This document shows, in pieces, positions 8,942-55,543 of a stretch of DNA of 64,000 nt. The stretch comes from Nitrospirales bacterium (GTDB taxonomy: Bacteria; Nitrospirota; Nitrospiria; Nitrospirales; UBA8639). Position 1 is the stretch's first letter; every line of letters begins with the position of its first letter. Below the pieces are notes generated by a model. It made no database searches. It worked only from the letters and a program-made list of their open reading frames with translations, and was not told the origin of the DNA. The DNA lies in the NCBI GenBank assembly GCA_965223295.1, contig CBDCWC010000002.1:576001-640000 (forward strand), given 5' to 3'. Position numbers and translations under genes: made by a program.

Positions 8942-9529
8942 TTATCTGTGGAGAGACGTGGGAGTAGGAAAGGTTAAAAAATTTTTCAGCAGATTCATTC
9001 CGGCTTTCGTCAAAATGGATTCGGGATGGAATTGTACGCCTTCTGCTCCAGTGGGCAAGTGCCGAAGTCCCATGATCTCGCCTTCCACTGTTTCCGCAGA
9101 GACTTCGAAGTCATCTGGCAATGTTTCTGGGTTTACGATGAGTGAATGATAGCGCGTGGCTTCAAACGGATTCGGTAAACCGTGAAAAATTGTCTTGCCG
9201 TCATGATGGACCATGGAGGTTTTGCCATGCATGAGGCGATCAGCCTGCACAATTTGTCCGCCGAACGCATAGGCCAATGACTGATGCCCGAGACACACTC
9301 CAAATAACGGAAGTTTCCCTGCATACTGTTTAATAGCTTCAACCGAGATCCCTGCCTCTCGAGGGGTGCAGGGTCCGGGAGAAATCAAGAGTTGGTCTGG
9401 TGCCAATCGTTCAATATCCTCAGTCGTGAGCTTGTCATTGCGAATGACCTGCACGTCGGCACCCAGTTCCCCCAAATATTGTACGAGGTTATAGGTAAAC
9501 GAATCGTAATTGTCGATGACTAGAATCAT
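8942..9529 (-). CDS. trpG: anthranilate synthase component II (glutamine amidotransferase)
   Basis: [28 protein letters not shown]. Confidence 0.95.
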
Positions 9530-9647
9530 GGTAAAAAGTTAGGTGTGAATAGTAGGGGGAGAGGGGTAGAAAAATCTCAGAGTCTTATGATCGTTCGAAT
9601 CAGAGCTGTTCTTTACCTGACTCCTTACTTTTTACTCCTCACGGATT

Positions 9648-11144
9648 TTATTCTAAGCCGCATACGGCCATTTCTAGAGCTTTCATGACGGCACCGGCTT
9701 TATTGCGGGTCTCCTCGTATTCCCGTGCGGGATCGGAATCTGCCACGATTCCACCGCCTGCCTGGATATACGCCTTCTTGCCATGTATCACAACCGTTCG
9801 AATATTGATGCCCGTATCCATATTGCCTGAAAAGCTAAAGTATCCTACTGCGCCGCCATAGGGACCTCGTTGTGTGGGTTCTAATTCTTCGATAATCTGC
9901 ATAGCCCGAATTTTGGGCGCGCCAGATAAGGTGCCGGCAGGGAAACAAGCCTTTAAGACATCATAGGATGTATATTGGGAATCTAGGATTCCTGTCACTT
10001 GAGAGACAATATGCATGACATGGGAATAACGCTCAATCGTCTGAAATTTTTCGACCTGGACCGTTCCAGTCTGAGCCACGCGGCCAACATCATTGCGTCC
10101 GAGGTCGACCAACATGAGATGTTCAGCCAGTTCTTTTTGATCTGCTAGAAGATCTTGCTCGAGGGTTTGATCTTCTATAGATGTCTTTCCTCGAGGACGT
10201 GTGCCTGCAATGGGACGAACCACAATTTTGCCATTTTCACAGCGTACTAACGTTTCAGGTGAGGCCCCGACAAGTGTGGTGTCGCCAAGCCGGAGATAAT
10301 ACATATACGGCGAAGGATTGATCACCCGCAAAGCTCGATAAATTTGCAGAGGATCGACCCGGAGGCTGGTTTCCCACCGTTGTGACATGACGCCTTGAAT
10401 AATGTCTCCAGCCTGAATATATTCCTTCGTACGTAGCACCATCTTTTCGTAGTCTGTCGGAGTCATATTGGATTGAAATTTCAGAGCTGCTCGCCCCTTT
10501 CGGACAGGTTGCCGAACCTTTGTTCTGTGCAACTTGGCAATAATGGCCTCAATACGATCACGGGCATCACGATATATTTTCCGCAAGTGGGTTTTGTTTT
10601 TCTTAGTCACATGCACATTGGCGACCACTTTGATCGTATGGAGCACATTGTCAAAAATTAATAAAGTGTCCGTGATACAAAATACGAACAAGGGTGTCAT
10701 GGCTTTGGACTTGACATAGGCCGGGATCGGCTCAAAGGATCGCACAATATCATAGCCGATAAATCCTACAGCCCCTCCGGTAAAAGGAGGTAGCCCTTGA
10801 ACTGGCACGGGATGATATGGCGCCATAGCTTCTTGTACATGATCTAAAGGATTCGCTTTTAAGGGAATTCGTGACCGTTTTTGCCCCTGCTGGGTAATGA
10901 CCTGGCCGTTTTCCTCCCATAAGACAACTGATGGTTGGCTGCCCAAAAACGAGTACCGTGCCCAACTTTCTCCACCTTCCACACTCTCGAATAAGAAAGC
11001 ATGTGAACCCGTATTGATCTTTGTAAAAGCTGAGACGGGTGTATCAAAATCTGCCAAGATTTCTCGGTAGATCGGAACCAAATTCCCCCGGGCTGTCAAA
11101 GCGCAGAAATCTTCAAAACCCACTGAATAATAAGCACTTTTCAT
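9648..11144 (-). CDS. trpE: anthranilate synthase component I
   Basis: NPSPYMY, PIAGTRPRG, EHLMLVDLGRND, PAGTLSGAPK; start moved to ATG 11144. Confidence 0.95.
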   Translation of the reverse strand: MKSAYYSVGFEDFCALTARGNLVPIYREILADFDTPVSAFTKINTGSHAFLFESVEGGESWARYSFLGSQPSVVLWEENGQVITQQGQKRSRIPLKANPLDHVQEAMAPYHPVPVQGLPPFTGGAVGFIGYDIVRSFEPIPAYVKSKAMTPLFVFCITDTLLIFDNVLHTIKVVANVHVTKKNKTHLRKIYRDARDRIEAIIAKLHRTKVRQPVRKGRAALKFQSNMTPTDYEKMVLRTKEYIQAGDIIQGVMSQRWETSLRVDPLQIYRALRVINPSPYMYYLRLGDTTLVGASPETLVRCENGKIVVRPIAGTRPRGKTSIEDQTLEQDLLADQKELAEHLMLVDLGRNDVGRVAQTGTVQVEKFQTIERYSHVMHIVSQVTGILDSQYTSYDVLKACFPAGTLSGAPKIRAMQIIEELEPTQRGPYGGAVGYFSFSGNMDTGINIRTVVIHGKKAYIQAGGGIVADSDPAREYEETRNKAGAVMKALEMAVCGLE

Positions 11145-11213
11145 GGATTCGACGGTAGCATACGCCCTATAAGGTGTCAACGAACTGGGGGAATAGAAGA
11201 TATGAGTGGCAAC

Positions 11214-11259
11214 AAAAAAGCGAGAATCCAAAAGGGCTTCCCCTATGGACTCTCGCTTT
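11214..11259 (-). terminator. intrinsic terminator of LysM gene
   Basis: AAAGCGAGAATCCA...TGGACTCTCGCTTT inverted repeat with T-run on the minus strand. Confidence 0.6.
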
Positions 11260-11290
11260 GAGTATGTTCTAGGAGGTGAAGAAGGAGTAA

Positions 11291-11947
11291 CTATTTACTG
11301 ACGGTAATTTCTTGGCCCACGTGAATGGTGTTATCGATCAAATTATTCCAGACTTTGAGATCATCGACCGTCACACCATACTGTTTAGAAAGGCTATACA
11401 GGGTCTCTCCCTTCACCACTGTATGTGTGCCGCCACCCATGGCCATGCTGGACGATTCAGCAACAGAATCTAGTGGAACATCATTGCCGTCTAGGTCCAG
11501 GTCTGATTCAAGCTTTGCCAGATCGGAATCTTTAAAATCGAGGTCTTCAAGTCCAAATTCCGATATAGAAGGTTCGGAAAGTTTCAGATCATCGTTATTA
11601 ACCATGCTGCCATCACGAGCGCTAGACAGTTCGTCATGAGAACGGCTCAATTGATCACGAAGTGCCTCTAACTCGGCGTTGAGATCACGAGTTTGAGACT
11701 CAAGGGAGCCAAGTTGTCGTTGGGTATCTTGATATTTGACGTTCAGTTCGCCCGTTCGTTTTTCTTCCTGAGCAAGGAGTCGTTGAAAGTTTAACGCACG
11801 AGCTTTCTCGGCTTCATATTTTTCTGTGCTTACGCACCCCGACAGTAGCCCGCTACAGACGAAAAGGCCAGCTGCAATTTTTAGATAGGTCATCCCAGTA
11901 GATGAAATGTGAGTGACCTGACCTGCTGTAAACGTTGGTAGCGTCAT
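11291..11947 (-). CDS. coiled-coil lipoprotein with C-terminal LysM domain
   Basis: lipobox LLSGC, heptad-rich segment, acidic linker, HTVVKGETLYSLSKQYGVTVDDLKVWN LysM. Confidence 0.85.
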   Translation of the reverse strand: MTLPTFTAGQVTHISSTGMTYLKIAAGLFVCSGLLSGCVSTEKYEAEKARALNFQRLLAQEEKRTGELNVKYQDTQRQLGSLESQTRDLNAELEALRDQLSRSHDELSSARDGSMVNNDDLKLSEPSISEFGLEDLDFKDSDLAKLESDLDLDGNDVPLDSVAESSSMAMGGGTHTVVKGETLYSLSKQYGVTVDDLKVWNNLIDNTIHVGQEITVSK

Positions 11948-12168
11948 GTTGCGGATTCCTCCTCCATTGAGTGTCGTTTATGTCCCTTTCTCCAATGGTT
12001 ACGTTCGGACTAAAAGGGTAGATGCAGAAAACATCCAGTTATCTTTTCCTACACAATAATTCGGATTCAGGGTAATGTCAAACCAAATAGTCCACCATTT
12101 TTGACAGACGAACCGAACACGTCTCTTCATTGACCCTTGAAAAATTGGTGTGCTAGTTTTTCTGCGCC

Positions 12169-45749: not shown

Positions 45750-46772
45750 ATGCCACGCAAGCCGACTCTCTCATCATTTTCTGAGTTTCGCGAAATGGCG
45801 TATGGCTTTCGGTTATCTCGGGTTATTTTTTCTGCTTTAGATCTGGACCTCTTTAATGTGATGGGACATCGTACCTGGTCGATTCCTACCTTAGCCAAAC
45901 AGTTGAAAGTGAGCACGCGTGGGCTCCATATTCTTTGCCGGAATTTAGCCAGTGCAGGCTTGTTGGTTCCCGCATTAGGACGATATCGAACCAGTAACAT
46001 GGTCAAGCAATACCTGCAAAAAGAAAGTCCCGACTATCGCGGAGATTACCTTGCCTTGATACAGCGGCAATGGACGGAGTGGTCTCGTCTTACCGAAGTG
46101 GTGACCACAGGTGTTCCCTTTGACCATGATGAACCAGAAACGGCTGCATATCGGAAGTCTTTTTCTTGGGCCATGCATCATCGGTCTCAAGAACCAGCGC
46201 AGGAGGTGGCCAGCCAAGTCTCTTTGAAGTCAGCACGTTCCATTCTCGATCTTGGTGGCGGACCTGGGACCTATGCGTTGGCGTTTCTTCAGGAGAATCC
46301 TCAGTTACAGGCAACAGTGATGGATCGGCCAGCTGCGCTGCAAGTCGCAAAAATTTTAGCGAAAGAACAATCGCTCACGTCTCGTCTTTCCCTACAACCT
46401 GGGAATTTCCTGGATGAGGAAATTTCTGGAAAATACGATGTTGTGTGGTACTCCAATGTGCTCCATATTTATTCTGCGTCTCAGAATCTCAAGATTTTTA
46501 GGAAAATCAAACGAGTGCTCAACCCTGGCGGACGACTCCTCATTCAAGATACCTTCTTGGAAGATCCGAGAGGGCTTCGGCCCTTAGAGGCTAATTTGTT
46601 TGCGGTGACGATGTTGCTCTATACAGAGAGCGGCAATACCTACCCCATACAAGATGTGCGCGCATGGCTTCACAAAGCTGGGTTGAATTGTACTCGTGTT
46701 CTTCGCCTGAGGCCAGGAACCGGAGATTGGGAAGGTCAAATACTTGAAGCGCGTAGGTCTCTATCTACTTAA
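45750..46772 (+). CDS. O-methyltransferase (dimerisation domain + class I SAM domain)
   Basis: N-terminal ALDLDLF winged helix, LDLGGGPG, GNF, SNVLH, LNPGGRLLI. Confidence 0.88.
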   Translation: MPRKPTLSSFSEFREMAYGFRLSRVIFSALDLDLFNVMGHRTWSIPTLAKQLKVSTRGLHILCRNLASAGLLVPALGRYRTSNMVKQYLQKESPDYRGDYLALIQRQWTEWSRLTEVVTTGVPFDHDEPETAAYRKSFSWAMHHRSQEPAQEVASQVSLKSARSILDLGGGPGTYALAFLQENPQLQATVMDRPAALQVAKILAKEQSLTSRLSLQPGNFLDEEISGKYDVVWYSNVLHIYSASQNLKIFRKIKRVLNPGGRLLIQDTFLEDPRGLRPLEANLFAVTMLLYTESGNTYPIQDVRAWLHKAGLNCTRVLRLRPGTGDWEGQILEARRSLST

Positions 46773-47120
46773 ACTCTTCATTATTTATAACTCAACAGGA
46801 AAAGAGTCGGGTTCTTTGGTCGACGTATTTGTTCTTGACTCAATTGGCAGGGTTGAGAATATTGTCAGTTTTCTCAAAAGGCTTGTAAGGCCTGCTCTTT
46901 TGAGTCCGTCTCCGAGGCAGGGGAAAGTTCCTACAACCCAACAACACTCTCGTAAAATTCATAGTTAGACATCCAGTGGATTTGTGAAAGCTCCTCCCTA
47001 TTCAGGGAACCAAGTATATCCATCGAATCTTCCCGACGTTTCTCTGAAGAGACTCTCAATACCGAAAGCCGAAAGAGACGTGTCATTTCGAACTTAAGGC
47101 CTGATGGTTATGCGGCCATA

Positions 47121-49304
47121 CTAGGATGTCTGCGGGGTTTGTGCCGTCCCTTCAGATGGTTTAATTGATGTAGGATCCTGAGAATACAGACTGGGCAAGT
47201 TGATAAAAAAGGTCGTACCCCGTCCCTGCAAACTTTGTACTTCAATCTTTCCCCCATGCTCTTGGATAATTTGGTGGGCAATGGCTAATCCTAGTCCAGT
47301 TCCTTCATGTTCTTCACTGAGATGTTTGGTCGTGAAAAATGGGTCAAAGATATGTTCAATATCTTCAGGAGCAATCCCTGAACCTGCGTCTTGAATTTCT
47401 ATTTGAACCCATTCTGGTTTTCCAGGGGAGGTGAGATGTCTAGTGCGGACGGTTAACACACCGCCAGCCGGCATCATGGCTTCCACGGCATTAAACAGAA
47501 AATTAAGAATGACTTGTTTCAGTTTTTGACGGTCAGCATAGACCTTCGGTAAACCTCGAATGAGATCGGTTTCAATCACAATGAGTTCATGGGAAGGGCG
47601 GACGCGTAGCGTATACAAGCACGATTCCAAAATCTCATTCAGATCTTCTTCTCGCAAGAACGGTTCAATTGGTTTGGCATAATCCAATATTTCTCGAGTT
47701 AGTCGTTCAATACGAAACACATCTTCCTTGACCACTTTGCTGAATCTAGCCAAAAACTGTTCATCGTCTTTTCGTTCCGGTGCCAAATCCACAAAGGCTT
47801 TAATTGAGGTTAAAGGATTGCGAATTTCATGGGCCAAGCCTCCTGCCATGGTCTCTAGTGAGCGCAATCGGTCAGTTCGGCGTACTAATGATTGAGATTG
47901 TTTGAGCTCTTCATACAAGAGAGCATTATCCAAGGCCACTGAAGCTTCTTGGGACAAGGTGGCTAGTAATTCTAAATCTTGGACTGAATAGCTCCCGTCG
48001 TCTGTTATTCGTGGGCCAAACACACAAAAGCCTAACAGGCGATTTTTGTTGACCAGAGGTAGACAGACCTCTGCTCCGATTTGCCCAAGTTTGGTCAGTA
48101 CCACTTGCGATTCTTCATCTGTGGCGAAGTCTTTCAAATCATTGACCAAAAAACTTGTTGTCCCTTGTTGCCAGGAGTCTTCCAATAATGAGCGGGATGC
48201 AAGGTGTACGTCAGAAAACTCGGTTAATAATTTTCCAAAACTTGATACGGGATGATAGTCCTGGCCGCTTTTCTTTCGTAAATATAAGGTACCCCATTGG
48301 AGTCCTAACGTTGGGCAGATCGATTGAACAATTGTGGCCGTCAAATCTTGAAGTTCTAAAATAGAGACCAGGGATTTCGAAAAATTCAACACGGTCTTAT
48401 ATTGATCATACCGCTCCTTAAATAGCGCTTTCGTAATGAGATTTTTTGCCTGCGTTTTCAATGAAGAGGCTCCAAACACCAGAAGCAACAACACGAAAAG
48501 TTCAAGTAAGGAATACCCAATATTGATGGATCCTAAATACCAATGTTGGCCGAGTAGTAAGACGGGATAGGCGGGAAATGCAATCAATACGACAAGTAGG
48601 CTGCCGGTGACACCGCGTTCCAATGCCGTACCAAGGTCAAGAAGGCGATAGCGGAGAAGGGTGAACGCAACCACAGAGATGTACACGGTTGCCAAAATTG
48701 CCCCGACAGGTTGTATGTTGATGCCATACCACAAGGGGAAGGTGGTGAGGCCACCACCGTACGCCACAATAGAACCACCAACTAAAAGATAATACCGTGA
48801 TCGTTCGGCGCCATGTTTTCTCTGAGCGGCTTGGAACAATAACCATGTCCCATAGAGAGAACAGAGCCCAAACCAGAGGAGATAGAAATGAAAGACAGGT
48901 CCGGGTTGTGGCCAGAACGAAAAACCTCCGGCAGGCTGAACGTTAACCACAAAATAGGGTGTTCCATTGGCAACCCATAAGAAGGTGGTGACGCCAGCGA
49001 TGACCCACAAAAATCGACGCTTATGGTGGATGTGTTCAAATTCCAGTAATGTGAAGACGTGCCAGACAAAAGTCCCGGGGAGGGCAATTGCCCCAATCAT
49101 GAGGAGGCGTACACATAATAACGCCGCATCATGGGATGAGGAAATTTGCCATGCTCCATAGCCAAACCCCCAGATTGCAGCTGCGAGCACATAGAAGGCA
49201 TAGGCTTGATGCTTAGGATGAGAAGGATTTTTGGCAAAAACGAGTAGGCCGGAAATGGTGGCGACTAGACCGGTCAGAAATCCACTTAAGGCATGCAGGG
49301 TCAC
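47121..49304 (-). CDS. membrane sensor histidine kinase (HisKA_7TM-like TM region, GAF, HisKA, HATPase)
   Basis: many hydrophobic helices in the first ~285 aa, GAF (CLPL....LLGF..FG....YS..D.ELL..L), H-box AHEIRNPLTSI, NAVEA, DAGSGI, FDPFFTTK, GTGLGL. Confidence 0.93.
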   Translation of the reverse strand: MTLHALSGFLTGLVATISGLLVFAKNPSHPKHQAYAFYVLAAAIWGFGYGAWQISSSHDAALLCVRLLMIGAIALPGTFVWHVFTLLEFEHIHHKRRFLWVIAGVTTFLWVANGTPYFVVNVQPAGGFSFWPQPGPVFHFYLLWFGLCSLYGTWLLFQAAQRKHGAERSRYYLLVGGSIVAYGGGLTTFPLWYGINIQPVGAILATVYISVVAFTLLRYRLLDLGTALERGVTGSLLVVLIAFPAYPVLLLGQHWYLGSINIGYSLLELFVLLLLVFGASSLKTQAKNLITKALFKERYDQYKTVLNFSKSLVSILELQDLTATIVQSICPTLGLQWGTLYLRKKSGQDYHPVSSFGKLLTEFSDVHLASRSLLEDSWQQGTTSFLVNDLKDFATDEESQVVLTKLGQIGAEVCLPLVNKNRLLGFCVFGPRITDDGSYSVQDLELLATLSQEASVALDNALLYEELKQSQSLVRRTDRLRSLETMAGGLAHEIRNPLTSIKAFVDLAPERKDDEQFLARFSKVVKEDVFRIERLTREILDYAKPIEPFLREEDLNEILESCLYTLRVRPSHELIVIETDLIRGLPKVYADRQKLKQVILNFLFNAVEAMMPAGGVLTVRTRHLTSPGKPEWVQIEIQDAGSGIAPEDIEHIFDPFFTTKHLSEEHEGTGLGLAIAHQIIQEHGGKIEVQSLQGRGTTFFINLPSLYSQDPTSIKPSEGTAQTPQTS

Positions 49305-49342
49305 GTAGAAGAAAATTCCCCGGGTGAGAAAAAGGCATCCCT

Positions 49343-49358
49343 AGCAACGGTTTTGCCA
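49343..49358 (-). promoter_or_regulatory. sigma-54 promoter of sensor kinase
   Basis: minus strand TGGCAAAACCGTTGCT (GG-N10-GC), 38 bp upstream of the GTG start. Confidence 0.7.
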
Positions 49359-49533
49359 CATGAAGGCTTATTGGACAATAAATATGCCTAGAAGTCAAAG
49401 CTTTGGGGTTCTTCCTCCCTTTCCCACATGGTCTCATTGAAGGCTCACGACAGCTGTTGCTGAACGAGTCTGTGGTTCATGGCTATTCTGAGAATCGTGT
49501 TCTTTCTGAGCTCATTGAGCGATTTCAACTCGT

Positions 49534-49771
49534 GGGTCTGCTGAAAAAACCCGCCAGCGGCGTTCCCTGACTTCGCCGGAGCGGCTTCGCGCAGGCAGGT
49601 CGCCATTTTTCCGTGCTCACATACTGCCAGTATGCTCCGCGCGCAAGAATGGCTGTGGCCTTTCCTTCGACAAGCTCAGGGCAGGACTGGACGGGCCGAC
49701 CCGACGTTCTTGATCGCCAAGAGCTTCCTGGCGAAACATGGCCTTTGCTATCTTCGTTATTCAACACTCCA
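49534..49771 (+). mobile_element. MITE family A copy 5 with two nested REP-like insertions
   Basis: GGGTCTGCTGAAAAAA...TTCAACACTCC; CTCGT direct repeat (49529-49533/49772-49776); inserts at 49566-49599 and about 49663-49686. Confidence 0.85.
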
Positions 49772-49782
49772 CTCGTGCAAAG

Positions 49783-52128
49783 TCATGCCGCGCCTTTGAA
49801 ATCATTGGATGTGTTGCTGATTGGAGTTTTCGGTCCAGTAGTCTTTTGCAATGGACGCAATGAAAAATTTCCAGCAGCGATGGGCTTTTCTAAGATAATC
49901 ACATACGCTTGGTTGGCAAATGCAGGATACACCCCTGCATGCACGCATCCCAGCGAATCTAAAGCTTTTTCCCATTCTGTTTGATCGAAAAAACGAAATT
50001 GCCCTTCTTTTTCGGCTTGTCGAATTTTCCCGTAATTATTCAGGAGTTCCCGGGCTTCCGCTTTCTGAGCATGTTCCTTCGCCTGGTTGATTAGATTTTG
50101 GTAGATGCCGGAAAAGTCTCCATTGGGTTTCAGATTGGAAAGTACCATTCGGCCGCCGGGAGCAAGAACTCGATACAATTCTTGTAAAGATGAGTGAGGA
50201 TCAGCCACATACCCAAGAACCAAGTTTGAAACGATCCGATCAAATTGGTGATTATGAAATGGCAACGGCTGCTGCAAGTCTACCTGTGCCCATGCCATTT
50301 GAAAGGAGGGAAACTCCGGCGAACGTGTATTTTGCAGCCCGTGGTACGTGTGAGTCATGTGTGCTTGAGCTCGTCCAAGTGCTTCAGAGCTCGCATCGAT
50401 ACCAACATAGCGAATCGAATGCTCTGAAGTTAGAGAAGGAAAAGTGTGTTGATGTTTCAGAGATTCCAATAAAAACAGCCCCGCATTCCCATTGCCACAT
50501 CCGACATCTAACACATATTGCCCTGCAGTAATGGGCCCCAACGCCCGAAACACATGATCTAACAGTTGAACATAATCCTGACATTTTCCCACGGATTGAA
50601 AATGTCCAAGATAATCATCCCAAAAACCTTGGCCAACATCGGTGTGAGAATGTGCCTGTAATGCCATTTTTTCATGGCGATTTTGCCGACCAAGGGTTAG
50701 ACGATTAGGTTCATGAATCTCAGTTTGAGATGCGGCACATGCGACATGGTTTCGGCAATGATCAATAATGTGTCGATAGGTTCTGCGTGCCACTTTTGGA
50801 TTTTCTTGAATTCGATGTAACGCTTCAGGTATATCCAGCCATTCTGATACACGTGTGCCTGCGGCCTGCTTCACCATTTCAGCATCCTGGCGGTCAATCC
50901 AACAATCTTTCCCTGCTGAGATATAGAAGATTGGAGTCTGCAAGGCCCGCACATTGTCAATCGTGTGATTGAGTTTGGAGAAATTATTGGTTGCGGCATC
51001 GGTTAAAAAGTGTCCATTCACATTAAATCCCAAAATATTTGTGGAATAAGGAATGTGTCCCTGCCGATAGTTGGCAAAGAGGTCTTCTTGATGAACCGTG
51101 GCCACGGTTCGTTCAACATCGACGACTCCAACCAGCAGAACTAACAGTGCCAGTGAAGGTTCCTCTACTTCAGCTTTGATGGTGACCGGCCCAGCTAAAC
51201 TCGACGCCACTCCGATAACCTGGCTCTGAGGCCATTGCTGACGAACAAACCGTATTACCGACTGGAAATCCTGTTTCATTGAAGAAAGGGTAAAACCAAA
51301 GTGCTGCCCATCACTCTCTCCCACATGATTGGTGTGGTCATAACGCACAACATGAAACCCATTGCTGGCAAAATAATAGGCTAACGTAAGATAGTCACGC
51401 TTCGTTTCCCCATAGCCGGGAGCCATGACCACAACCGGCAATCTGGAAAGATCAGTTTCAATTGGATAATCATGATAGGCGATAATAGTGTGGCCTTTGG
51501 AATTTTCCAGCGCCACTCTGTTGCTCTTAATAGGTTGATTAGCTGGAGAAGCCTGATTGTTTGGATTGCAGAATGTCTGTGTTTTAGAAACTTGAAGAGG
51601 GTGGGATTCATGATTCTGGAGTTCGTTGTCACATGAAGGACCCGACTTAGGTTTCGTGACTTGGCTCATGACAAAACTGCCAGGCTCCAATGCGAACGAA
51701 TCAATTGGAGAATTATCCAATGTTCTGGGAGGTTTTTGTGAATGATGAAGCATCACACGAAGAAGGGTGCTCCCTTCCCATACCGTCGGCCCTCGATTGA
51801 TTGTGACGTGTTGAATCGTTCCCTGCTGCATTGAGGTCAATAGTGTGGACCTTGTTCCAAAACACTGAAAGGTCATTTCCTGCCCGACGTGTACGGGAGG
51901 CATTCCTTGTAGGTTCAATTCTAAAGCTCCTGTTGCCCCTAGTTGTATCTGACCTTCCCAATTTCCGCCGAGACAATGAAAAAATACTGGAACGGGAGCA
52001 CATCCGTTTAGTGCTGGTTGTCTCTTTTCTCTGAATAGTTCAGATCGTTCGGGAGCGAATTCTTGATTTCTTTTCGAGACGGATGTTGACGTGTCCAATA
52101 AAATTTCATTCATCATTCTTTCCCCCAT
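49783..52128 (-). CDS. LuxD-like acyl-ACP thioesterase / class I SAM methyltransferase fusion protein
   Basis: aa ~200-490 match LuxD motifs from memory (LAYYFASNGFHVVRYDHTNHVGESDG, VASSLAG, VGVVD, AGKDCW, LHRIQEN); aa ~500-750 methyltransferase (LDVGCGNG, GIDAS, LPF...FD, RVLAPGG); start may be 52116/52113. Confidence 0.85.
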   Translation of the reverse strand: MGERMMNEILLDTSTSVSKRNQEFAPERSELFREKRQPALNGCAPVPVFFHCLGGNWEGQIQLGATGALELNLQGMPPVHVGQEMTFQCFGTRSTLLTSMQQGTIQHVTINRGPTVWEGSTLLRVMLHHSQKPPRTLDNSPIDSFALEPGSFVMSQVTKPKSGPSCDNELQNHESHPLQVSKTQTFCNPNNQASPANQPIKSNRVALENSKGHTIIAYHDYPIETDLSRLPVVVMAPGYGETKRDYLTLAYYFASNGFHVVRYDHTNHVGESDGQHFGFTLSSMKQDFQSVIRFVRQQWPQSQVIGVASSLAGPVTIKAEVEEPSLALLVLLVGVVDVERTVATVHQEDLFANYRQGHIPYSTNILGFNVNGHFLTDAATNNFSKLNHTIDNVRALQTPIFYISAGKDCWIDRQDAEMVKQAAGTRVSEWLDIPEALHRIQENPKVARRTYRHIIDHCRNHVACAASQTEIHEPNRLTLGRQNRHEKMALQAHSHTDVGQGFWDDYLGHFQSVGKCQDYVQLLDHVFRALGPITAGQYVLDVGCGNGNAGLFLLESLKHQHTFPSLTSEHSIRYVGIDASSEALGRAQAHMTHTYHGLQNTRSPEFPSFQMAWAQVDLQQPLPFHNHQFDRIVSNLVLGYVADPHSSLQELYRVLAPGGRMVLSNLKPNGDFSGIYQNLINQAKEHAQKAEARELLNNYGKIRQAEKEGQFRFFDQTEWEKALDSLGCVHAGVYPAFANQAYVIILEKPIAAGNFSLRPLQKTTGPKTPISNTSNDFKGAA

Positions 52129-52323
52129 TTAATTAAGTGTTTTTACTTACTTTTTTGGTCAAAGAATTCCCCGGGTTCACAAGAACCCCCACGAAGTTCA
52201 ACCGAATTTAGTGAACTGTTTTAAGAGCAAATCGGAGAAGGCTGGTCGGCAGGGAGAGGGTTGCTGAATCGCCTGAATGATTCAGGGCGCCTTCGGATTT
52301 TTTCTCTTATGACTTAGTACTAG

Positions 52324-52340
52324 AGCAACCTAAATGCCAA
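52324..52340 (-). promoter_or_regulatory. sigma-54 promoter of thioesterase-methyltransferase gene
   Basis: minus strand TTGGCATTTAGGTTGCT, near-perfect -24/-12 consensus about 195 bp upstream of the start. Confidence 0.75.
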
Positions 52341-52567
52341 AGTTTTGGCAAAAAGAAATTCCTTGGAAATACTGGGAAATTTTTGCCGAAGAAAGCAGAA
52401 ACACGGCATTGAAACGTGAAAAGTTCATTATGAGCTGTCGAGCAACTGACAGGGCCAGAGCAATTGCGTAGAGATCCCTGACATGCAGGAATGACTTTTT
52501 TCATTGACTCCGCCCTATGGTCTACCTAGAATTCATTCACGATTGCCAACATCACGAGGAGGTTCGT

Positions 52568-54655
52568 ATGAAACACGGCACCATCCACAATGTTGTCCTG
52601 GCTTCCTATCCTGGAGCCGGAAAAACCAGCCTCACTGAAGCTCTCGCCTTTTCGGCCGGACTCATTCCCAGTATGGGCCATGTCTTACAGGGCACTACTC
52701 TTGCCGACTTTGAACCGGAAGAAGTACATCGTCATCATTCCTTGAGTTCTGCGCTGATTCAATTTGAATGGCAGGGGACAAGAATGAACGTCCTGGATAC
52801 TCCGGGTATGTCGGATTATGGAGTGGAGGTCCAGTCGTCGCTGAGGGCTGCGGATGGCGTGATTTTAGTGATCGGGGCTGGAACGGGGCTTCGTTCAGAA
52901 ATTGAACGGGTGTGGGACTTGATTCAAGAGCAGGAACTGCCTTGTTTGATTTTTATCAATGAATTAGATAAGGACGGGACCGATTTTACGGCGATCTTGG
53001 AGGAGTGCCAAAAAAGCTTAGAGCTGAAGGGGGTACCGCTGACGATTCCAGGAATGCAAGATGGACAACTGTCGGGAGTCATTGATCTCCTATCTCGCCA
53101 GTTCGTAACCTCTCATATACAGGGACCAAAATTTCAACGAAAGGATCTTTTGGCAGAACATGAAACGTTGACAACTGAGCATCGACGTCGGCTTACCGAA
53201 CTAGTGGCCGAGACGAATGATCAACTGGTGGAAAAGTACCTCACGGATGGAGAGCTGTCGGATGAAGATCTGATTGATGGCTTGACGTTGGGTACTCTGG
53301 AGCGAAAAATTGTTCCCGTTCTTTGTGGATCAGCAACCAGCAACGTGGGAATAGCGAGTCTTTTGGATGCCGTCATCCGTTTTCTGCCCTCGCCTGAAGA
53401 TCGCGCCAAGTTACATCCCTTGGCTGGTATTCAGCCACAAACTCAGGAAGCCTGTCAGCGACATCCCAACCCTCAAGAACCATTTTCGGGCCTCGCATTT
53501 AAAACTACGATTGATCCATTCATGGGTCGTCTCACCTATGTTCGAGTCTTGTCGGGAACACTCCAAGCCGATTCAGCTTTTTTCAATGCTTCACGGCAAG
53601 TCAAAGAAAAAGGTGGGCACCTCTTCTTTTCTATCGGGAAAAAACATCAACAAACCGATCACGCGGACGCGGGCGATATTGTGGCAATCGCTAAGCTTAA
53701 AGACACACAAACTGGCGATACGATTTGTGAAGAGAAACATCCCATTGCCTACCCCGGTCTTACGATTTTAAAACCTGTCATGTCTTATGCGTTAGAGGTT
53801 AAAAGTAACAAAGAAATCGACAAGGTGAGTTTAGGCTTACATAAGTTGGTGGAGGAAGATCCCTCTCTGGAATTTTTGAGAAATGATGAAACCAAGGAAA
53901 TGCTTCTGAGCGGGGTAGGGCAAGTCCATATCGATGCGACCTTAGAAAAGTTACGGCGGAAATATGGGGTAGACGTAAATTTACATATGCCAAAGGTGCC
54001 CTACAAAGAAACGATTCACCGTATGGCTCAAGCCCAAGGCAAGTACAAAAAACAAACAGGAGGACATGGGCAATTTGGCGATTGTTGGTTGCAGATTGAA
54101 CCGCTGTCCCGGGGAAAAGGCTTCGAATTTCACAACAAGATTGTGGGCGGCGCGATTCCGAGGAATTTTATCCCCGCCGTTGAAAAAGGCGTACAAGAAG
54201 CCATGCAACATGGCATTATTGCCGGCTTTCCGGTGATCGACGTGCAAGTCACTGTCTATGATGGCTCACATCATCCGGTTGACTCCTCAGAAATGGCCTT
54301 TAAAGTCGCTGCATCAATGGGCTTCAAGAAAGCTATGGAGTCAGCCCAAGCAGGCTTGCTTGAACCAATCATGGCTGTGGAAGTGACTGTTCCTGATGAT
54401 CTGGTAGGAACCGTCATTGGTGATCTCAACTCGCGTCGTGGGCGTATTCAGGGGATGGATGCCAAAGGCCATCATGAAATCGTCAAAGCTCATGTGCCCT
54501 TAGCGGAAATGCTCACCTATGCACCAACGCTCACATCACTGACTGGAGGAAAAGGCAGTTATCGAATGGAATTTTTTGGCTACGAAGACGTTCCCAAAGA
54601 ATTGGTCAATCGAGTCGTAGAAGAACAACAGAAGGAAGCGGTCGCGTCGACTTAG
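52568..54655 (+). CDS. elongation factor G paralog (EF-G2-like, degenerate GTPase motifs)
   Basis: GAGKT, DTPG, KQTGGHGQFG, DSSEMAF, LLEPIM, GDLNSRRG; divergent switch I and G4; GGAGG RBS before ATG 52568. Confidence 0.9.
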   Translation: MKHGTIHNVVLASYPGAGKTSLTEALAFSAGLIPSMGHVLQGTTLADFEPEEVHRHHSLSSALIQFEWQGTRMNVLDTPGMSDYGVEVQSSLRAADGVILVIGAGTGLRSEIERVWDLIQEQELPCLIFINELDKDGTDFTAILEECQKSLELKGVPLTIPGMQDGQLSGVIDLLSRQFVTSHIQGPKFQRKDLLAEHETLTTEHRRRLTELVAETNDQLVEKYLTDGELSDEDLIDGLTLGTLERKIVPVLCGSATSNVGIASLLDAVIRFLPSPEDRAKLHPLAGIQPQTQEACQRHPNPQEPFSGLAFKTTIDPFMGRLTYVRVLSGTLQADSAFFNASRQVKEKGGHLFFSIGKKHQQTDHADAGDIVAIAKLKDTQTGDTICEEKHPIAYPGLTILKPVMSYALEVKSNKEIDKVSLGLHKLVEEDPSLEFLRNDETKEMLLSGVGQVHIDATLEKLRRKYGVDVNLHMPKVPYKETIHRMAQAQGKYKKQTGGHGQFGDCWLQIEPLSRGKGFEFHNKIVGGAIPRNFIPAVEKGVQEAMQHGIIAGFPVIDVQVTVYDGSHHPVDSSEMAFKVAASMGFKKAMESAQAGLLEPIMAVEVTVPDDLVGTVIGDLNSRRGRIQGMDAKGHHEIVKAHVPLAEMLTYAPTLTSLTGGKGSYRMEFFGYEDVPKELVNRVVEEQQKEAVAST

Positions 54656-54823: not shown

Positions 54824-55543
54824 TTATAACTTCTTTCTACGACGAAAGAGTTCCAGACATACTAAGCCAGATATGAAAAGGCCTAACGTACTTGGCTCAG
54901 GAACGGGAGTCGAGGACTCTTTGGTTAATCGCACATTGTCGAGAATCAAGCCAATGTTGTCTCCACCATTGTCTCCACCTGAGGCATGAGCAAAGAACAA
55001 TGTTCCTGTGGTTGAGGCATCGGAAGAAACCATGCGTGTGACTGTCTGAAAAGGATCGTCAAAATCCCGCACGAACGTTTCTTGGTAAAGAGAACCAAGC
55101 ACCACGGTAACAGCGTTGTCACCCTCGTTTTGATTCGGGAACTCACTGCATATAGGAGAAGTGGTGGCGCAGGGGCCTGCCAAATCAAAGGTGAGAATGA
55201 TTTGGTCATTCGGATTAAATGAAAAGGTGTTCTTCGATTCAAGCCTTCCCGCATGGCTTGTCGACCCATCTAGGTCGAGATAGAGGCCGTTGCCTGGGTA
55301 AAAATCCACGAATCCATTACCTAAGAGATCGACACTGCCATTTGTTACGTTCCAGTTGGTGAAAGTAGAGAAGTTCGTTTGTCCCATACCGCCGTTCTCA
55401 TTATCAAAATTATCCTCTAGAAGAGTCATGGTAGCTGCGAATGCCACCTGAGAAATGCAAAGGAGAAAACCGGCAATACAGACCATGAGACCAATTAAAG
55501 TCTTGCGTTTGCTTCTTAATGCCGTAGGATGAATCATAAACAT
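54824..55543 (-). CDS. PEP-CTERM sorting domain protein
   Basis: signal peptide (AFA), beta-rich body (W.V..GSVD, LDLDG, GLILDNV), C-terminal VPEPSTLGLFISGLVCLELFRRRKK; AGGAG RBS. Confidence 0.9.
   Translation of the reverse strand: MFMIHPTALRSKRKTLIGLMVCIAGFLLCISQVAFAATMTLLEDNFDNENGGMGQTNFSTFTNWNVTNGSVDLLGNGFVDFYPGNGLYLDLDGSTSHAGRLESKNTFSFNPNDQIILTFDLAGPCATTSPICSEFPNQNEGDNAVTVVLGSLYQETFVRDFDDPFQTVTRMVSSDASTTGTLFFAHASGGDNGGDNIGLILDNVRLTKESSTPVPEPSTLGLFISGLVCLELFRRRKKL

Follow-up and report, generated by a model that had tools for sequence, protein, structure and literature searches.

Why should a gene for a LuxD-like thioesterase fused to an S-adenosylmethionine (SAM)-dependent methyltransferase stand directly before a gene for a membrane sensor kinase, and do these two genes belong to one signalling system? 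The question is raised by a locus in a Nitrospirales genome of 3.78 Mb in 3 contigs, for which we analysed a stretch of 64,000 nucleotides (nt), positions 576001–640000 of contig C2, called the window below. An earlier note, made from the letters of this stretch, had pointed out two co-oriented genes among housekeeping-type genes and had proposed a quorum-sensing-like cassette, in which one enzyme makes a diffusible lipid signal and the neighbouring kinase senses it. Both genes are real and co-oriented on the minus strand (Table 1), and they form a conserved and hitherto undescribed signalling-enzyme module. A closed regulatory loop between enzyme and kinase is the reading that we prefer, and its quorum-sensing form is a plausible minority hypothesis.

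An important part of the analysis was to investigate how stably the two genes are kept together, and for this purpose the fusion and the kinase were queried against 40 relatives. The fusion is present in 21 of the 24 genomes of the window's genus, and the three genomes without it are 91, 66 and 59% complete. In 20 of these 21 fusion genomes, the gene immediately downstream is that of a kinase orthologue (61–83% identity) in the same orientation; in the 21st, the fusion lies 500 nt from a contig end. Concerning the sister families, the fusion was found in all six genomes of family f2 and in three of the five of family f3, and every one of these nine fusion genomes has a related kinase downstream in the same orientation, with at most one gene between. 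Neither fusion nor kinase was found in the five genomes of family f4 (0/5). A scan of 185,579 species genomes gave 79 loci, including that of Candidatus Nitrospira defluvii and ten outside Nitrospirota, which belong to Planctomycetia, Elusimicrobia, Omnitrophota, Verrucomicrobiota and Margulisiibacteriota. The kinase is the next gene after the fusion in all nine assessable outgroup loci, and its seven-transmembrane (7TM), GAF and catalytic parts each match the window kinase; the tenth locus ends at the gene and stands outside this count. What follows the kinase in the outgroup loci is a single receiver (REC) protein or, in one case, a GAF-HD-GYP protein. Because the pair is kept while the flanks differ completely between phyla, we regard fusion and kinase as one unit, which is very probably a functional one conserved in evolution. 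The co-occurrence that the earlier note had put forward as a check is thus found within the genus (20/21), in the sister families (9/9) and in the assessable outgroup loci (9/9).

We next explain the fusion itself, starting from its hydrolase part. Pfam assigns Acyl_transf_2/LuxD to residues 212–455 (E 3e-24; 86.1 bits against a cut-off of 20.3). The family profile matched PDB 1THT, the myristoyl-acyl carrier protein (ACP) thioesterase LuxD of V. harveyi, at E 1.2e-36, and the same structure was the top Foldseek match of the fusion model (TM 0.81 on the target), for which the full model has a predicted local distance difference test score (pLDDT) of 72.8. No substitution of S310, D408 or H438 occurs among 38 homologues, and the triad is kept in other phyla as well. 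These residues are the putative equivalents of the LuxD triad S114-D211-H241 by their spacing, with 98 residues from Ser to Asp and 30 from Asp to His as in LuxD. LuxD proper was rejected at 89.5 bits against an equivalog cut-off of 420, and the reading as a lux fatty-acid reductase was dropped. LuxE has no match in the genome, and LuxC has one marginal match of 22 bits, in a search that also gives matches in 8 of 14 control genomes.

For the methyltransferase part, the models Methyltransf_31, Methyltransf_23 and Methyltransf_11 are above the Pfam cut-off at residues 524–728. Motif I lies at residues 540–548; D541, G543–G547 and D578 are invariant across the 38 homologues, the SAM motif is kept in other phyla, and Foldseek gives fold matches of this domain to small-molecule methyltransferases. 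The description of the protein as a LuxD-like thioesterase fused to a SAM methyltransferase therefore stands on its Pfam domains, triad, SAM motif and closest structure. Database annotation of the family is generic only ('UbiE', 'methyltransferase domain-containing protein'). The identical database protein has 776 amino acids (aa) and homologues also begin at Met6, and the true start is likely Met6 (52113). At the other end of the protein (49783–49800), a variable tail of about 30 residues closes in a conserved AA-COOH; A781 is invariant in the 38 sequences, copies of the N. defluvii type and other Nitrospirales copies likewise end in AA, and the tail is absent from other phyla and from the f2 forms. 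This tail resembles an ssrA-like degradation tag, a resemblance hinting at regulated proteolysis of the fusion.

The earlier note had overlooked the N-terminal part of the fusion, where a degenerate PilZ region spans about 130 aa. Aligned with the canonical PilZ of orthologues, the N-terminus of the window protein gave an hhalign probability of 88.7% (E 2.6e-6), and an AlphaFold2 model of this domain alone is a six-stranded barrel (pLDDT 84). Foldseek ranks the PilZ domains of BcsA, PP4397 and YcgR highest for the domain (TMq 0.52–0.59, E 0.04–0.4), matches that are not significant alone. Pfam gave no match on the N-terminus of the window fusion, and the search of the ESM Atlas, in which the best score was 0.85 and a cluster with PilZ ranked only 11th (0.83), is taken as a lead only. 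The window's genus lacks the motifs for binding cyclic di-GMP (c-di-GMP), RRxxxR and [DN]xSxxG, which show no conservation in a 38-sequence alignment; CLGGxWEG...GFPPV is conserved in their place. The f2 and f3 orthologues have a Pfam PilZ domain with both motifs, and both are also found in the consensus of 56 long members of the enzyme family. Judged from these alignments, gating by c-di-GMP seems to have been lost in the window's genus and sigma-54 control to have been retained.

The enzyme family is much wider than Nitrospirales: a full-library profile search gave 462 clusters (50% identity) at E ≤ 1e-30, from at least seven phyla, with lengths from about 550 aa, which is the bare core, to about 1490 aa. 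Bare cores account for about 28 of the best 150 representatives. The aforementioned 56 long members carry PilZ in 39 cases, an SRPBCC lipid-binding domain in 11, PAS in 10 and REC in 9, and Acyl_transf_2 was matched in all 56 sampled members. Bare-core enzymes still lie beside a kinase at loci L101, L104, L108 and L114, and with a bare core next to a kinase the coupling there must run via the product or via transcription; we take such cases to argue for coupling through the product. The REC and PilZ domains argue that the kinase controls the enzyme, which would be compatible with coupling through the product. In three of the nine outgroup loci, the neighbours include ketoacyl-synthase pairs or genes for a ketoreductase, an FAD amine-oxidase-like protein, a nitroreductase, a PlsC-type acyltransferase or an SRPBCC protein; a fourth locus has a B12 radical-SAM gene. 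Because of these ketoacyl-synthase and lipid-gene neighbours and the SRPBCC domain fused in 11 of the 56 long members, a carrier-bound acyl substrate is favoured.

The kinase was described by the earlier note as a multi-transmembrane/GAF/HisKA protein with the H-box HEIRNPL, and Pfam confirms it: HisKA_7TM at residues 10–224 (PF16927, 59.9 bits against 28.6), GAF at 317–459, HisKA at 483–544 and HATPase_c at 591–704, of which HisKA and HATPase_c are also above cut-off, with the phospho-acceptor histidine at residue 492. It reached none of the equivalogs with which it was compared (score/cut-off: AtoS 218/646, ZraS 179/479, PrsK 153/300, NtrB 97/240), and by these scores it resembles AtoS, ZraS, PrsK and NtrB in its catalytic core only. 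The kinase PrsK of the PEP-CTERM system is among its best full-length NCBIfam resemblances, below cut-off, and a PEP-CTERM protein is encoded nearby. According to the alignment of the spacers, relatives share the GTG start and the ribosome-binding region GGGGAA. A paralogous 7TM kinase (34% identity) at C2:906635–908839 has no thioesterase-methyltransferase neighbour.

Whether both genes are under sigma-54, each with a GG-N10-GC promoter of its own as the earlier note had claimed, was examined by scanning for the consensus TGGCAC-N5-TTGCW. Both sites exist, and they are among only 4 one-mismatch sites in the window; the two-mismatch sites number 30 against a shuffle mean of 35, showing no excess over chance, and the genome in total has 6 perfect and 82 one-mismatch sites. 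Conservation is found only upstream of the fusion. With at most one mismatch, the fusion site is present in 33 of 35 Nitrospirales loci, 32 of them at about −177 to −242 from the start of the open reading frame and one at −62, the 35 being those of the 79 public loci whose match reaches the N-terminus and which have upstream sequence. All 9 loci of a set from the window's genus and genome G026 have it as well (9/9); this set overlaps the former because some loci share genomes. For the site upstream of the kinase, the counts are 0 of 34 loci and 0 of 16 in a second locus set, and its bases are unconserved in the aligned spacer. The claim thus holds for the fusion gene, which is predicted to be under a conserved sigma-54 promoter, and fails for the kinase. 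The genome has rpoN, and Sigma54_activat (PF00158) gives 29 matches, corresponding to about 21 full-length activators. Further upstream, a conserved block lies 31 nt before the −24 element in the window, and at about 30–100 nt across the aligned loci, and no other sequence in the whole genome matches it with 0 or 1 mismatch. Being conserved and unique, it is a candidate site for an activator (enhancer-binding protein); no regulon can be derived from it, since there is no second genomic copy.

The operons of f2 and f3 indicate which partners may act after the kinase. Their order is fusion, kinase, a REC-AAA-HTH sigma-54 activator of the NtrC type (Sigma54_activat E 1e-72) and a REC-HD-GYP protein, and the activators form a tight clade (68–74% identity). 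The candidate from the window genome at C2:535659–537032 (best BLAST match, 45%) was rejected; it lies beside its own NtrY-like kinase and outside the clade of the operon regulators. The REC-HD-GYP protein has an orthologue in the window genome at C2:570505–571506 (51% identity against 28% for the next match), about 5.5 kb before the window and about 55 kb from the pair. Such an orthologue is present in 21 of the 24 same-genus genomes, at 137–785 kb from the pair where both are on one contig. It has HHEKFDGSGFP where the motif name expects GYP. The gene is followed, with an overlap of a few bases, by one for a PAS-GAF-PAS-HisKA-HATPase-REC hybrid kinase (C2:568073–571506 for the two, 4.5–8 kb before the window), and a second kinase likewise comes after the HD-GYP gene in genome G032. 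Two f3 genomes have, between fusion and kinase, a gene for a PilZ-TENA/THI-4 (haem-oxygenase-like) protein of about 450 aa (L023 in G032, 9116–10468; L022 in G029, 10801–12150), which is predicted from its domains to be another c-di-GMP-linked enzyme in the operon. Upstream of the fusion in the f2 operons (L024–L029), the same strand carries genes that encode an RNase_H_2-like protein, a PP2C phosphatase, a SnoaL-like protein and one protein that has no Pfam family.

From these features, the following closed loop can be proposed, to which we would give a probability of roughly 45% as a whole. The pair would be transcribed mainly from the sigma-54 promoter upstream of the fusion. The enzyme would take an acyl chain off its carrier (acyl-ACP) and methylate it, and the product would be a small hydrophobic methylated lipid, for example a fatty acid methyl ester; that the fusion performs both acyl release and methylation has about an even chance of being right, with the substrate and the product as we infer them. 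The 7TM-GAF kinase would perceive a membrane or lipid cue, most likely the product of the enzyme. That the product is sensed by the kinase in the manner of an autoinducer is a tentative proposal with the odds clearly against it, for which we infer export, sensing and the phosphotransfer partners alike. The kinase would pass its phosphate to receivers, which in the sister lineages would be the NtrC-type activator and the REC-HD-GYP c-di-GMP phosphodiesterase, and these could act back on the enzyme by way of transcription and of c-di-GMP binding to its PilZ domain. In the window's genus this loop would be rewired, with a PilZ domain lacking the c-di-GMP motifs, an NtrC partner that was not found and the REC-HD-GYP gene elsewhere. 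Because the PilZ motifs are lost and the NtrC partner was not found, control in this genus would run through the conserved sigma-54 promoter and some activator. The widest form of the proposal is lipid-ester signalling over many phyla, in which an enzyme gated by c-di-GMP or by phosphorylation makes a diffusible methylated acyl signal from acyl-ACP, a dedicated 7TM-GAF kinase senses it, and HD-GYP proteins and sigma-54 give the feedback; this we consider rather doubtful.

Several points weigh against this loop. The methyltransferase gave sub-threshold matches only when compared with NCBIfam (DVU_1556 family, ArsM, UbiE, BioC and Mtf2; for example, Mtf2 at 23.9 bits against a cut-off of 400 and BioC at 39.4 against 185), and because it is below every substrate-specific cut-off, O-methylation of a carboxyl group is a guess. 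The triad is kept in 40 of the 56 long members and degenerate in 16, and it is degenerate in the f2 enzymes (S to D, D to N and H to S), so that part of the family is not a synthase. The f2 partner kinase is of a soluble GAF type of 425 aa with no transmembrane segment. The earlier note had supposed that an NtrC-type regulator acts from outside the window; such a regulator is indeed encoded after the kinase in the sister families, but a search at E ≤ 1e-125 over 25 genomes of the window's genus gave no operon-type orthologue of it (0/25). A quick and unfinished tree likewise places no protein of the window genome within the clade of the operon activators. As for the promoter, the two aforementioned sets of loci overlap and same-genus genomes are not independent, and among the remaining loci a sigma-54 site within 2.6 kb upstream occurs in 6 of 27 from Nitrospirota and in 0 of 9 from other phyla. 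Lastly, PilZ and REC on the enzyme together with HD-GYP in the operon point to control of the enzyme by the kinase at least as strongly as to sensing of its product.

This last point leads to the alternative that survives best, namely that control runs in one direction. The kinase would sense an unrelated cue, from the membrane or the environment, and the enzyme would be its output, reached via REC, via c-di-GMP and PilZ or, in this genus, via sigma-54; the product would then be a structural or protective lipid or the end product of a secondary metabolism, and no signal. REC (9/56) and PilZ (39/56) at the N-terminus of the enzyme fit such control, as do the REC-HD-GYP and NtrC-type regulators after the kinase and the conserved promoter of the fusion, and the ketoacyl-synthase, ketoreductase and FAD-oxidase genes that adjoin in three of the nine outgroup loci suit a biosynthetic output. 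It explains less well why bare cores without any regulatory domain keep an adjacent kinase, and why degenerate enzymes are retained with the kinase, which is odd for a purely metabolic output; moreover, one enzyme family has stayed with one 7TM kinase family over seven phyla, which is tighter than usual for pairs of regulator and target. We consider this alternative possible, at odds well short of even.

A second alternative starts from the degenerate enzymes. Receptor-type alpha/beta hydrolases are known in RsbQ, which acts with RsbP, and in D14/KAI2 of plants, and similarly the hydrolase here could perceive, and possibly hydrolyse, an incoming ester or lipid and inform the kinase, either directly or via a modified ligand, with the methyltransferase resetting or marking the ligand. 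Long members with a degenerate triad (16/56) are maintained nevertheless, the degenerate f2 forms keep their kinase, NtrC and HD-GYP partners, and the sensor domains PAS, PilZ and REC are fused to the core. The window protein and most of the family, however, have an intact triad and SAM site, the closest structure is the biosynthetic acyl-ACP thioesterase LuxD, and ketoacyl-synthase neighbours speak for synthesis over perception. We therefore regard a receptor role of the enzyme as unlikely.

Chance neighbourhood of an unrelated kinase and a housekeeping enzyme, such as a BioH/BioC-like esterase plus methyltransferase for biotin or an enzyme of quinone methylation, is suggested by the aforementioned database names, by weak BioC/UbiE matches (36–42 bits against cut-offs of 185–216) and by the housekeeping flanks, but it is very improbable and contradicted already by a kinase of one and the same family beside the fusion in every assessable locus of seven phyla, with wholly different flanks, by a hydrolase of the LuxD and not the BioH type, by methyltransferase scores far below the cut-offs and by the fused signalling domains, and the BioH/BioC and UbiE readings were rejected on these grounds.

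Table 1. Features of the fusion–kinase locus (coordinates in the window; residues are those of the encoded protein)
Feature	Position	Strand	Remarks
Sensor histidine kinase gene	47121..49304	-	727 aa: HisKA_7TM, two more hydrophobic segments (to residue ~278), GAF, HisKA (H492), HATPase
Sigma-54-like site TGGCAAAACCGTTGCT upstream of kinase	49343..49358	-	one mismatch; 39 nt 5' of kinase GTG; this genome only
Conserved block TTTGACTTCT..ATTTATTGTCCAATA upstream of kinase	49369..49398	-	nearly invariant, alignment of 6 spacers
Dispersed repeat elements in fusion–kinase spacer	49533..49771	.	blastn of 478-bp spacer against genome
Fusion gene	49783..52128	-	degenerate PilZ + LuxD-like thioesterase + SAM methyltransferase; 781 aa from first ATG
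Class I SAM-dependent methyltransferase, predicted	49879..50631	-	residues ~500–750; motif I LDVGCGNGN
LuxD-like alpha/beta-hydrolase (acyl thioesterase/transferase), predicted	50749..51531	-	residues ~200–460; triad S310, D408, H438
N-terminal beta-barrel, degenerate PilZ	51748..51996	-	residues 45–127; without RRxxxR and [DN]xSxxG
Long 5' leader, about 190 nt	52114..52312	-	conserved length; hairpin 52173–52188
Predicted sigma-54 type -24/-12 promoter of fusion TGGCATTTAGGTTGCT	52324..52339	-	one mismatch to consensus
Conserved upstream block GGCAAAAATTTCCCAGTA	52370..52387	-	conserved in alignment of 18 upstream regions

Other features of the locus are as follows. RNAalifold on 14 leaders gave the hairpin in the table (GGGTTC-TTGT-GAACCC) as the sole consensus hairpin, in which 3 of 6 pairs are kept through changes on both sides. 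A conserved CGGGGAAT comes after it, and a hairpin specific to a sub-clade, CTGAATCA...TGATTCAG, lies near the 5' end of the leader. A riboswitch in the leader was considered and rejected, because one small hairpin alone does not justify the claim; no Rfam family was matched over 46700–52700 at E ≤ 1. Scans for sigma-70 promoters and terminators gave counts not above those of shuffles.

The spacer between fusion and kinase is enlarged by repeats in the window, having 478 base pairs (bp) against about 160–310 bp in relatives. Its blastn search against the genome gave 421 matches, and among the 39 non-self matches listed, all fall within spacer positions 2–252. Part of the composite repeat is a short GC hairpin with a T-run behind it (CGCCGCTGGCGGGTTTTTT), and the repeat may act as a terminator or insulator of transcription, in this genome only. 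The conserved block between this repeat and the kinase may be an internal promoter or an operator.

The flanks are of the housekeeping type that the earlier note had described: they include genes of the purB/C/Q/L/F types and those for a redoxin, an MBL-fold protein, a TPR protein, an O-methyltransferase and an elongation factor G (EF-G) paralogue, and further those for a PEP-CTERM protein and for HtrA, PlsY, PgsA, KdsA and PyrG types. The EF-G paralogue (52517–54655, +, 712 aa, all five EF-G domains by Pfam) is divergent from the fusion gene, and its position is kept in the 8 same-genus loci mapped, without such linkage in other families. Convergent to the kinase is a plant-type O-methyltransferase (45750–46772, +, 340 aa) with Methyltransf_2 and a dimerisation domain, which is kept beside the kinase in 5 of the 8 mapped same-genus loci and lies about 5 kb off with genes between in a sixth. 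The gene at 54824–55543 (-) encodes a secreted protein whose PEP-CTERM sorting signal is recognised by Pfam (E 1.7e-4). Close homologues of the window proteins have source names including Nitrospirales bacterium and Candidatus Nitrospira neomarina/allomarina, and on the basis of these names the host is a marine-type member of Nitrospirales.

Nitrospirales are the main nitrite oxidisers of oceans, soils and wastewater plants, and their signalling is little known. The module would offer a testable circuit of one enzyme, one kinase and one promoter, in which lipid-derived signals, c-di-GMP and transcription by sigma-54 may be connected. A PilZ-gated thioesterase-methyltransferase would be a new class of c-di-GMP effector enzyme. 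If the widest form of the proposal is true, nitrite oxidisers, Omnitrophota, Planctomycetes and other groups would have cell-to-cell or membrane-state signalling that is coupled directly to c-di-GMP. The portions of the literature available to the search held no description of the fusion–kinase architecture, and the supplementary tables of a PilZ survey (bioRxiv 10.1101/814665) might list such fusions.

Four known systems can be compared with the module. LuxD differs from its counterpart here, which forms one protein with a methyltransferase and has a kinase as its partner. BcsA is similar as an enzyme bearing PilZ whose catalysis is gated by c-di-GMP, but it is a glycosyltransferase and not a thioesterase-methyltransferase, and the c-di-GMP motifs have been lost in the window's genus. 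The gene order phcB-phcS-phcR-phcQ of Ralstonia, namely synthase, kinase and two response regulators, is paralleled by the f2 and f3 order of fusion, kinase, NtrC-type response regulator and REC-HD-GYP. In the Phc system, the SAM methyltransferase PhcB is reported to be the signal synthase and to make methyl 3-hydroxymyristate, which is sensed by the membrane histidine kinase PhcS (PMC8578825, PMC11960443). Here, in contrast, a LuxD-like thioesterase and usually also PilZ, REC or PAS are part of the methyltransferase protein, the partner is a HisKA_7TM-GAF kinase, the outputs would be sigma-54 and c-di-GMP instead of the LysR regulator of Phc, and the host is a nitrite-oxidising member of Nitrospirales; the likeness is drawn from proposed function and gene order. 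In the Rpf system, whose signal is called diffusible signal factor (DSF), the membrane sensor kinase RpfC, a hybrid kinase without HisKA_7TM or GAF, acts with the REC-HD-GYP regulator RpfG, which degrades c-di-GMP, and relatives of the window similarly encode REC-HD-GYP after the kinase. We know of no PilZ domain on RpfF. This DSF synthase of Xanthomonas is reported to have acyl-ACP thioesterase activity (PMC13660987). The fold of RpfF, however, is that of a crotonase, where the enzyme here is an alpha/beta hydrolase, and its signal DSF is an unmethylated, free unsaturated acid. By this comparison, the module appears to combine features of Phc and of Rpf/DSF in proteins of different folds, and to add gating by PilZ or REC to them.

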